DNA of 64,000 nt from a virus. Taxonomy: Duplodnaviria > Heunggongvirae > Uroviricota > Caudoviricetes. The stretch covers positions 10,988-74,987 of the IMG/VR virus record IMGVR_UViG_3300028805_000065; one strand, given 5' to 3'. Made by a program: the position numbers and the translations under genes. The notes beneath the pieces were generated by a model that saw only the letters and a list, made by a program, of their open reading frames with translations, did not search any database and was not told the origin of the DNA. Positions 10,831 to 62,174 of this stretch are shown piece after piece; position 1 is the first letter of the stretch, and every line of letters begins with the position of its first letter.

Positions 10831-11052
10831 ATGATTATATTATATAGTACTGGATGTCCCAAGTGTAACATACTTGAGAGAAGATTAACAAACGACAATA
10901 TTGAATTTGAAATAAGCAATGATATTGACAAACTGATAGATATGGGATTTCAGAATGCCCCTGTTTTACAAATCAACGACCAGTTTATTGTATTTGAAGA
11001 TGCAATGAAAAGGCTTAAAGCGTATGAGGCTGGAAAGGGTACACTTGAATGA
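10831..11052 (+). CDS. glutaredoxin/NrdH-like redoxin
   Basis: YSTGCPKC (CxxC) and APVL; immediately upstream of nrdD. Confidence 0.88.
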   Translation: MIILYSTGCPKCNILERRLTNDNIEFEISNDIDKLIDMGFQNAPVLQINDQFIVFEDAMKRLKAYEAGKGTLE

Positions 11053-59723: not shown

Positions 59724-59746
59724 AAAAAAAAGAGGCGCATAGCCTC
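59724..59746 (-). terminator. intrinsic terminator just upstream of TMP
   Basis: GAGGC-TATGC-GCCTC followed by a T-run on the - strand. Confidence 0.65.
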
Positions 59747-59749
59747 CTC

Positions 59750-60160
59750 TTAAATCTTTTTAAAATATTTACCAAAGGTATTTGGTATAATTTCGTATTC
59801 AATATCCATCATTGTGTCCCACCAAAAATGTGGGTTACCTAACATATGGCTAGGCGGATAACCAGTTTCCGCATTCTCAATAACCATCATCGTATCATAT
59901 GTACCCGTTGTATAATTGACATCGTCATTTATTTCAATCATACCAATACCGCCAGTTGCTGTCGGTTGAAAATGTGGGGCAGATGCACTAGACCCAAGTT
60001 GCCCGGTTCTATTATATAATACTGGTTCTGGTGACTCATAAAATCTATCTAAATACTTTGAAAGTCTTATAAGAGATAATTCTTGCGCTTCTTGCGTAGC
60101 AAGACGAACCTTATCTATGACTCCTTTTTCAAGACTTGCCCAATCTGTATAAACCATCAA
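59750..60160 (-). CDS. hypothetical tail-module protein
   Basis: P..Y.RTGQL motif; located between MTP and TMP. Confidence 0.7.
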   Translation of the reverse strand: MMVYTDWASLEKGVIDKVRLATQEAQELSLIRLSKYLDRFYESPEPVLYNRTGQLGSSASAPHFQPTATGGIGMIEINDDVNYTTGTYDTMMVIENAETGYPPSHMLGNPHFWWDTMMDIEYEIIPNTFGKYFKKI

Positions 60161-60915: not shown

Positions 60916-61398
60916 TCATTTTATGCAGAACGCCTCGCATATATTAATTGCGTCCGCCTCATCGTCACTTATATCTAATTTATACTTCTGTAAAACATGA
61001 TTAACTGAATCAGCTTTTACTTTCTTTCTATTCGAATTCTTTATTCCAACTAACTTACGCCAAGTAGCACAAGCCATCTCTGTGTAATTTATATTATTTG
61101 ATAAACAGTAATAAAATACTGCACCTATAATCCTAGATAATTTTCTTGTAGTGTCAGCATTTCTTGTAGACGGCATTTGTTCAATAACTACATCATCTGG
61201 GGATTTATCAAATATCAAAGTAGTAATTGAAAAACACATTTTCTTTATTCTGTCTTCAGCATTTTTATTTTTGCTTAAATCTATTACTCCGCTTTCAGCG
61301 TATTTACCGTTAACAAACAACGCCCATCCAGTTTTATTTGATGATGTATCAAGCGCTAACACTTTCCATTTTTTCTTTTTAGCCATAATATTTACCAT
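60916..61398 (-). CDS. RuvC-like Holliday junction resolvase
   Basis: VLALDTSS.KTGW, VVIEQ, W...VG, K...K, DDEADAI (RuvC acidic tetrad). Start may be 61386. Confidence 0.88.
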   Translation of the reverse strand: MVNIMAKKKKWKVLALDTSSNKTGWALFVNGKYAESGVIDLSKNKNAEDRIKKMCFSITTLIFDKSPDDVVIEQMPSTRNADTTRKLSRIIGAVFYYCLSNNINYTEMACATWRKLVGIKNSNRKKVKADSVNHVLQKYKLDISDDEADAINICEAFCIK

Positions 61399-61400
61399 TG

Positions 61401-61498
61401 AAGAGAGTGGGGCAGAGTGTTCTGCAATTCTCTACCCTCTTTGTAACGATTGTCCCCTCGCCAATGAGCAGAACGGGATCATTAGCAAGGACACAATC
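61401..61498 (-). ncRNA. putative structured RNA: two hairpins with a 7-bp kissing loop
   Basis: 20-position P1 (one G.G mismatch, three G.U); 8-bp P2 plus extension; loop GUUCUGC complementary to loop GCAGAAC. Confidence 0.7.
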
Positions 61499-61712
61499 AT
61501 GTTAACTCACCCTTTTTCCACAACTTGTATAGTTCCTTTGTTTCTTCTCTCCAAAAGACGAACACAAAAATATTGTCCGTCTTGCTAAAAAGCACGTCAG
61601 CCAAATGACACCCATGCGACGCATATAACTTGGCTTGCTTTAAATCTTTGACAAGAACCACATCCTCAATTCTATAATTAATGGCTTTTGTCATCACTTG
61701 TGATTCTTTCAT
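61497..61712 (-). CDS. small hypothetical protein (DUF5659-like)
   Basis: GGAGAGGT RBS; VFVF..EETKELY..W. Confidence 0.7.
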   Translation of the reverse strand: MKESQVMTKAINYRIEDVVLVKDLKQAKLYASHGCHLADVLFSKTDNIFVFVFWREETKELYKLWKKGELT

Positions 61713-62146: not shown

Positions 62147-62174
62147 AAAAGAGTGGGGTAGTTTCCCACCCCAC
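62147..62174 (-). terminator. intrinsic terminator after major tail gene
   Basis: Minus strand GTGGGGTGG-GAAA-CTACCCCAC followed by TCTTTT. Confidence 0.75.

Follow-up and report, generated by a model that had tools for sequence, protein, structure and literature searches.

The question raised by this locus is what fills the gap in front of a resolvase gene in a large phage, and what it does there. The locus lies in a 64,000-nucleotide (nt) stretch of DNA (the window: positions 10,988 to 74,987 of the IMG/VR virus record IMGVR_UViG_3300028805_000065, a record of 139 kb of which the window is a part), on whose minus strand a gene for a protein of 71 amino acids (aa) is followed by the gene of a ruvC-type Holliday junction resolvase. 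A structured RNA element of about 96 nt (61402-61498) takes up all the space from the stop codon of the 71-aa gene to ruvC. As described below, this element is a new RNA motif without a match in Rfam 15, although of a familiar general kind, namely a structured intercistronic leader in a phage mRNA, and as far as searched it is confined to one clade of rumen and gut SPbeta-like phages. The comparison of homologues showed a sense-strand RNA with a 19-20-bp hairpin P1, an 8-bp hairpin P2 and a 7-bp loop-loop kiss, a fold that is kept by compensatory mutations. As for its function, which we infer from sequence comparison and gene context, the element would be a cis-acting structured leader in a late polycistronic mRNA, controlling ruvC post-transcriptionally and most likely at the initiation of translation; a probability of roughly 0.45 was assigned to this reading.

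On the minus strand the element forms two hairpins that are joined by pairing between their loops. P1 begins within the UGA stop codon of the upstream gene (61499-61497) and joins a pyrimidine-rich 5' arm (61498-61479) to a 3' arm (61467-61448); in a check of the sequence, 19 of 20 positions were paired, three of them as G.U, with one G.G mismatch. Between the arms lies an 11-nt loop 1 (61468-61478), in which GUUCUGC (61474-61468), the 5' kissing strand, abuts the 3' arm of P1. A linker (61438-61447), whose unpaired 3' half reads AAAGA, leads to P2, where GGGUAGAG (61437-61430) pairs with CUCUGCCC (61417-61410) through 8 bp including one U.G. The 12-nt loop 2 (61418-61429) carries the 3' kissing strand GCAGAAC (61425-61419), perfectly complementary to that of loop 1 over 7 bp. 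Directly 3' of P2 there is an unpaired pyrimidine tail, CACUCUC (61403-61409), followed by an A/U-rich spacer (61387-61402) that runs up to ruvC. The minimum free energy (MFE) of the 98-nt stretch was -40.1 kcal/mol, against -24.0 ± 3.1 kcal/mol in 200 dinucleotide shuffles, none of which equalled it (z = -5.2). The positions and pairings that the original prediction, made from the letters of the window, had given for P1, P2 and the two loops all agreed with the sequence, including the start of P1 in the upstream UGA. An extension of P2 by AAGA/UCUU, also proposed there, had to be dropped: it is not conserved, and positions 8-9 of the tail region vary without compensation. In the terminator scan no terminator was called at 61400-61500 and no U-run was found after P1 or P2, in line with the earlier statement that the element is not a terminator.

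RuvC homologues were plentiful in rumen and gut metagenomes, and their loci were compared. All relatives with a RuvC identity of 50% or more had the element in this gap, which gave 21 distinct sequences. These elements are 72-90% identical to the copy in the window, compared with 62-83% for the ruvC DNA, so that the element is conserved as much as or more than the flanking coding DNA. Its position is also constant: in 21 of 21 sequences the upstream stop codon lies inside the foot of P1 or 0-5 nt from it, and in all of them the tail stands 10-16 nt 5' of the ruvC AUG, with spacer lengths of 10, 13, 14, 15 and 16 nt. Since these lengths differ by non-multiples of three, the spacer is non-coding. 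P1 keeps its length in all 21, with no insertions or deletions in its arms. Three blocks are invariant or nearly so, namely AAAGA in the linker (AAAGAG with the first G of P2), the Shine-Dalgarno (SD)-like GAGGG in the 3' arm of P1, and the tail, which reads CACCCUC in all 20 relatives and CACUCUC in the window alone. The partners of GAGGG in the 5' arm vary on one side only, drifting between C and U opposite the fixed G, so many P1 pairs are G.U. With a covariance model built from the alignment, a single copy was detected in the 139-kb genome, scoring 107 bits on the minus strand and 27 bits on the antisense. When 851 bp were compared with the DNA of the INPHARED phage collection, no match was obtained, and stem-anchored and core patterns run against IMG/VR and GTDB genomes returned only the same three relatives; pattern matches in loci L006, L007, L010, L071 and L072 turned out on inspection to be due to chance.

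Conservation of the fold was analyzed in the alignment of the 21 sequences, which represent perhaps eight lineages, with P1, P2 and the kissing helix imposed (34 pairs), and was compared with 500 shuffles, a control that ignores phylogeny, and with slid partners. Standard pairs filled 93.0% of the pair cells, against 88.7 ± 0.3 in the shuffles and 40-56% with slid partners. Two-sided changes were observed at 11 of the 34 pairs, against 4.0 ± 1.5 in the shuffles (0/500) and 0-3 when the partners were slid. The kissing helix was 97.9% paired and three of its seven pairs covary (U-A to G-C, G-C via G.U to A-U, and C-G to U-A). Most of the sequences carry GUUCUGC/GCAGAAC, and this pair is replaced by GUUCGGC/GUCGAAC in L053 and L054 and by GUUCGAC/GUCGAAC in L075, giving a G-C, G.U, A-U series at one kissing position and a change from U-A to G-C at another. 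In L019, L061 and L012, GUUCUGU occurs with ACAAUAAC or AUAAUAAC, which turns the terminal C-G into U-A, and the central pair of the kiss is replaced by a two-base bulge that leaves 3+3 bp. Double changes were also present at six pairs of P1, and G-C was exchanged for A-U at two pairs of P2; RNAalifold, run without a given structure, returned both hairpins. The covariation that had been proposed as a check in homologous gaps was found in P1, in P2 and in the loop-loop helix, and the case for it is robust despite the kinship of the sequences, given the slid controls and the multiple independent compensations.

The same alignment bears on the strand to which the structure belongs. An inverted repeat of 20 bp next to the gene of a junction-resolving enzyme could in principle act as DNA, extruding as a cruciform or hairpin that would serve as a resolvase substrate or loading site, an origin or a primosome signal. 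However, 75 cells of the alignment were G.U and only 10 were A.C, so the complementary strand would carry many mismatches. The low antisense score given above and the covariation between the loops, for which DNA offers no rationale, point the same way, and a role at the DNA level is considered extremely improbable. The structure thus belongs to the sense-strand RNA and not to a DNA cruciform, and the view of the original prediction that the wobbles reflect selection on RNA is upheld by the relatives.

Other folds of the same stretch were considered and rejected. A helix closing a three-way junction, in which the last part of the upstream gene (GGGUG) would pair with CACCC of the tail, is predicted in the window, but 12 of the 21 sequences have GGGCG there, which leaves an uncompensated central C.A mismatch. 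An outer helix between AAGAGGGU and ACYCUCUU, combined with an inner GCAGA/UCUGC hairpin, is favoured by the single-sequence MFE in several members; it was discarded because the compensations track P2 (GAG/CUC in L063 and L075, GGA/UCC in L019), and moreover it is not conserved in L053, L075 and L066, and RNAalifold prefers P2. A variant class is formed by L019:1389-1485, L061:1392-1488 and L012:1392-1488, where a 3-nt insertion follows P1 (ACAAUAAUU) and two registers are possible for the foot of P1. In these three sequences the linker contains GUUAU, complementary to AUAAC in their new loop 2.

Known families were searched with the 4227 models of Rfam 15. No match at gathering scores was obtained in the whole window, and nothing relevant appeared at E<10 over the element, where the best match was Fibro-purF (16 bits against a threshold of 60; E = 0.37). 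Five homologous loci gave no match at E≤0.1. The original prediction of a structured RNA located in cis and matching no known family is therefore sustained. In a large screen of IMG/VR, unnamed candidate RNAs were reported in front of the gene for the Holliday junction resolvase RusA of phages and in front of genes labelled 'resolvase', and the unnamed candidates of that screen number more than 10,000 (PMC10690425).

The gene pair around the element was as originally described. The upstream 71-aa gene lies at 61497-61712 and ruvC at 60916-61386, both on the minus strand; the latter matches Pfam PF02075 (E = 7.7e-11) and PHROG 159/827. The acidic residues D13, E69, D141, E143 and D145 were invariant in the comparison of homologues, and the catalytic residues of RuvC are taken to be among them. 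The conserved start of ruvC is the ATG at 61386, which gives a 156-aa protein beginning MAKKKK, and the ATG at 61398 of the open reading frame (ORF) list is ATA in relatives. Because of this, 16 nt separate the end of the structured part from the ruvC start, and not 3 nt as first proposed. The SD of ruvC is the weakest of its block (-2.8 kcal/mol, against -8 to -11 kcal/mol for the neighbouring genes), which agrees with the earlier remark that ruvC lacks the strong SD used elsewhere in this phage. Across the RNA-bearing clade the SD in the spacer is weak or absent, with energies from +2.2 to -5.9 kcal/mol, against a mean of -8.1 kcal/mol in the relatives that lack the RNA. These latter relatives, with a RuvC about 40% identical, have neither the element nor a gap: the upstream gene, a homologue of the 71-aa gene (42% identity, E = 3e-13), overlaps ruvC as ATGA behind a strong SD, GAGGAG. 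In L038 (RuvC 37%) there is a short gap without the element. Since the relatives at about 40% keep the ATGA overlap, the element is best described as a derived, clade-specific insertion of about 100 nt between two translationally coupled genes.

The reading as a translational leader follows from this arrangement: the element lies at the junction between the message of tail genes and a nuclease gene, it takes the place of a stop/start overlap, and the start region that remains for ruvC is poor. One of the three options in the original prediction had been that the RNA controls translation of the resolvase, and this option gave the best fit to the context through the replaced overlap and the weak SD; the function itself is again what we infer. 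The insertion would have replaced direct translational coupling with a compact folded domain, which would insulate ruvC from ribosomes finishing the 71-aa gene. Initiation at ruvC would then be left to a poor A/U-rich start region, with the invariant anti-SD-like pyrimidine tail as its 5' edge. In our own reading, the tail resembles the anti-SD of 16S rRNA and the purine blocks resemble SD sequences. The invariance of AAAGA(G), GAGGG and CACCCUC suggests that the fold is read by a partner; candidates are the 30S subunit or a protein, which might even be RuvC, in analogy to the operator of T4 gene 32. As a probable net effect, RuvC, a nuclease that may do harm, would be made in small and independently adjustable amounts from an mRNA whose other products are abundant tail proteins.

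Precedents for such control are found in T4. In the operator of gene 32, through which gp32 represses its own synthesis, a 5' pseudoknot precedes an A/U-rich stretch without structure that extends to the start site; at genes 25 and 38, a clade-specific RNA structure at an intercistronic junction conditions downstream initiation (PMC3014915). With the gene 32 operator the element shares a pseudoknotted fold some tens of nt upstream of the start of a phage gene for DNA metabolism, and then an A/U-rich unstructured spacer with a weak start site. This type of layout (kissing-loop fold, tail, A/U-rich spacer of 10-16 nt, AUG) was found in 21 of the 21 sequences. However, the T4 operator is a compact H-type pseudoknot, whereas here there are two full hairpins and a 7-bp kiss, unrelated in sequence and topology, and the element is intercistronic, its foot containing the stop codon of the preceding gene. 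The proteins differ as well, gp32 being a cooperative single-strand binder and RuvC a junction-specific dimer, whose binding to RNA would here be hypothetical. The split ribosome-binding sites of T4 gene 26-25 and gene 38 resemble the element in being intercistronic RNA structures that arose in one phage sub-clade, the effect on initiation being presumed in the present case. In T4 a small hairpin brings SD and AUG into register, but no SD at a workable spacing exists here. A split SD-AUG site, which needs an effective spacing of 5-11 nt, was accordingly rejected: AAAGA would still be at least 23 nt from the AUG with P2 removed, and GGG is paired in P2.

Several points weigh against translational control of ruvC. 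The mechanism is incomplete, since a simple insulator needs neither a conserved kissing loop nor invariant unpaired blocks. A relay, in which the ribosome terminating at the foot of P1 would melt P1 and open the ruvC start, failed in a partition-function calculation: once a ribosome footprint was placed on the RNA, opening the start region cost 7.5 kcal/mol in place of 5.6 kcal/mol, and the cost was reduced in only 4 of the 21 sequences (the calculation omits the kissing helix). Some members have a fair SD, such as GGUGGAG in L050, so that a weak SD is not universal. A low output of RuvC is no obvious necessity either, because the relatives lacking the RNA do well with a coupled ruvC that has a strong SD. 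Finally, the support from RNA libraries consists of one short contig of 159 nt over 61373-61531 (metatranscriptome run X2), which shows presence in an RNA library and is uninformative on ends, strand or level; the matches in runs X1 and X3 are probably DNA.

A more specific proposal for the partner is that the kissing fold mimics a branched nucleic acid and is bound by the RuvC dimer, so that an RNA decoy of the DNA substrate would bring about autogenous translational repression of the resolvase. This is regarded as improbable. If true, it would explain why unpaired blocks are invariant, why the element keeps strictly to a place 10-16 nt from the start and why simple coupling was replaced in this clade. 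To our knowledge, a logic like that of gene 32 has not been described for any junction resolvase.

In the main rival explanation, considered rather unlikely, the element serves the processing or stability of the mRNA. Intercistronic RNase III sites are known from T7 and SP82, and P1 would be a site of this type, at which the late transcript is cut between the 71-aa gene and ruvC. The SD-like polypurine stretches (GAGGG in the 3' arm of P1 and AAAGAGGG before P2) at the new 5' end would protect against RNase J as a stabiliser of the STAB-SD type, reportedly described by Agaisse and Lereclus in 1996, and the kissing fold would shape or gate cleavage. The 19-20 bp of P1 in the 21 sequences, with one internal mismatch, correspond to the roughly two turns of double-stranded RNA expected at an RNase III hairpin; GAGGG is fixed though its partners drift, which implies a constraint other than pairing; and the element occupies the intercistronic gap of what is probably one very long operon. 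An irregular intercistronic hairpin of about 20 bp and SD-like polypurine tracts without a following start codon are indeed common to the element, the T7 and SP82 sites and the STAB-SD and SP82 polypurine sequences. By contrast, the second hairpin, the covarying 7-bp loop-loop helix and the invariant pyrimidine tail at the 3' end have no counterpart in those systems and are not needed by processing sites, and cleavage here would be hypothetical. The GGG of the second tract, moreover, is engaged in P2, where compensations occur, and is thus unavailable as an SD. Ribosome-binding-site or SD-like sequences are known to stabilise SP82 phage, aprE and gsiB mRNAs in Bacillus (PMC7509114).

The invariant unpaired nucleotides beside covarying helices could also belong to a ligand-sensing riboswitch, in which the hairpins held by the kiss would form a pocket from the invariant linker and tail, with the anti-SD-like tail as the expression platform. 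In predicted folds the tail can pair with the purine-rich start region of each homologue (GGUGGAG in L050, AUGAG in L075, AAGAGG in L004), and the general architecture recalls kissing-loop aptamers. On the other hand, an invariant tail facing varying putative partners is the opposite of a simple sequestering helix, there is no conserved SD to sequester and no terminator, and no riboswitch model of Rfam 15 matched. The element is found in one phage clade and before one gene only, and no metabolite is obvious for a resolvase gene. A riboswitch is held to be a doubtful proposition.

The place of the element in its operon was relevant for a further alternative. On the minus strand the order is a terminator-like hairpin (62153-62174), a 112-aa gene, the 71-aa gene, the element, ruvC, a 238-aa gene, a 136-aa gene, a second terminator-like hairpin (59727-59751) and the tape measure gene. 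The first hairpin, upstream of the five-gene block, was present at about position -790 with respect to ruvC in 8 of 14 scanned loci that bear the RNA, and the second, before the tape measure gene, in 12 of these 14. Inside a probable single late operon, both bracketing hairpins may be partial terminators or may stabilise mRNA 3' ends. The phage is probably SPbeta-like, of rumen or gut Firmicutes, with a late polymerase of the YonO type; an 887-aa ORF is present in the genome, and one Bacillus subtilis phage record is among its distant tblastn matches. The late genes of SPbeta make up a single operon, which YonO transcribes from one start, and YonO is without the flap domain needed by multisubunit polymerases for hairpin-dependent pausing and termination (PMC5467207). 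If the phage works like SPbeta, the relative output inside the operon must be set after transcription, since the late genes would be one YonO transcript.

Two observations on the tail genes of the relatives concern the same classification. The tape measure proteins of L057 and L058 (2949-2950 aa) have Pfam matches to choline-binding repeats, pointing to a Firmicute host. In L053:2650-3069, a 139-aa gene directly before the tape measure gene has a weak Pfam YomN match, which fits an SPbeta-like tail module. Within the RNA-lacking sister clade L020-L037 (for example L021:1259-2037), a strong terminator-like hairpin stands about 300 nt upstream of ruvC, just before an 81-aa gene, and several RNA-lacking members have a further terminator-like hairpin right after ruvC (+530). 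As terminator-like hairpins sit elsewhere in L020-L037, the punctuation of the operon differs between the clades.

The original prediction had also considered a processive antiterminator resembling the HK022 put RNA or the Bacillus EAR, that is, a nascent RNA that modifies the polymerase so that it reads through the hairpin and U-tract before the tape measure gene. The element is a two-hairpin RNA of about 100 nt located 1.6 kb upstream of the conserved hairpin at 59751-59727, and put and EAR are likewise hairpin RNAs of about 70-120 nt that act in the nascent transcript upstream of intrinsic terminators. However, an equally good hairpin (62174-62153) precedes the element by about 0.7-0.8 kb and would have to be passed without it, and L020 and L024, which lack the RNA, still carry the terminator-like hairpin before the tape measure gene. 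The element lies in mid-operon, after two genes, and is not proximal to a promoter, promoter-like matches in the region being no more frequent than in shuffles. Besides, no EAR model of Rfam 15 matched, and the late polymerase is probably of the YonO type, YonO being without the flap domain that multisubunit polymerases require for termination at hairpins. With these results the antitermination option is disfavoured and was judged very improbable. A weak sigma-70-like match at 61478-61505 on the minus strand (TTAACA, 16 nt, AATGAT; 9/12) overlaps the 5' arm of P1 and is not conserved in relatives.

The complementarity of the loops is also compatible with a stand-alone RNA freed from the mRNA, as the covariation fits pairing within or between molecules alike. 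Such an RNA might be a loop-loop multimer like phi29 pRNA or like ROOL and GOLLD, a decoy or cofactor, or a new self-cleaving ribozyme. P1 and P2 differ by 12 bp, which by our estimate makes a coaxially stacked intramolecular kiss geometrically tight, and small ribozymes typically have this size and a pseudoknot. Assembly through kissing loops is reported for large RNAs of rumen and phage origin (bioRxiv 10.1101/2024.12.08.627333). Against this, an intramolecular kiss with the hairpins side by side is feasible, with a linker of 10-14 nt running along the lower part of P1; the element has neither a promoter nor a terminator of its own and takes up the whole intercistronic gap; no pRNA or ribozyme model of Rfam matched, and no conserved core of a cleavage site was visible. 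Like phi29 pRNA, the element is a phage RNA of roughly 100 nt, and both have two loops that are complementary to each other. The pRNA, however, is made from its own promoter at the genome end, its 4-bp pairing is strictly intermolecular and it serves a portal motor of the phi29 type, whereas the present element is embedded in the mRNA of a large SPbeta-like phage (139 kb) and matches no Rfam model. An SPbeta-like phage is expected, by assumption, to package its DNA with a terminase, so there would be no role for a pRNA. The multimerisation originally suggested by analogy with phi29 gains no positive support from the sequence, and for a freed RNA of any kind the chances are considered slim.

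Coding explanations were examined as well. Small ORFs starting at ATG 61500 (22 codons) or UUG 61427 (11 codons), and an in-frame extension from AUU 61428, are not conserved, each being missing from relatives or shifted there into another frame. An N-terminal extension of RuvC, read-through of the stop codon and bypassing of the gene 60 type were rejected since neither the frames nor the matched codons are conserved. A 145-aa ORF with a GTG start on the plus strand (61151-61588) runs antisense to both ruvC and the element, and as its complementary strand holds a conserved coding sequence and the structured RNA, it can almost certainly be dismissed as spurious.

What raises the element above an ordinary hairpin is that its tertiary pairing is supported and that the replacement of an overlap coupling can be seen, although a function deduced from context and the thousands of comparable unnamed candidates weigh on the other side. 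Together with the candidates of the IMG/VR screen, it hints at structured RNAs being a recurrent feature in front of the junction-resolvase genes of phages. Being small (about 96 nt), absent from Rfam and endowed with unusually clear covariation, including a compensatory series of G-C, G.U and A-U in the kiss, it lends itself to the definition of a new Rfam family and to structural or biochemical work. Moreover, an evolutionary transition is visible between sister clades, from coupling by a stop/start overlap to a structured RNA leader. If the reading as a translational leader is true, the locus would be an example of a large phage tuning one enzyme gene within a very long late operon, probably transcribed by its own minimal RNA polymerase.

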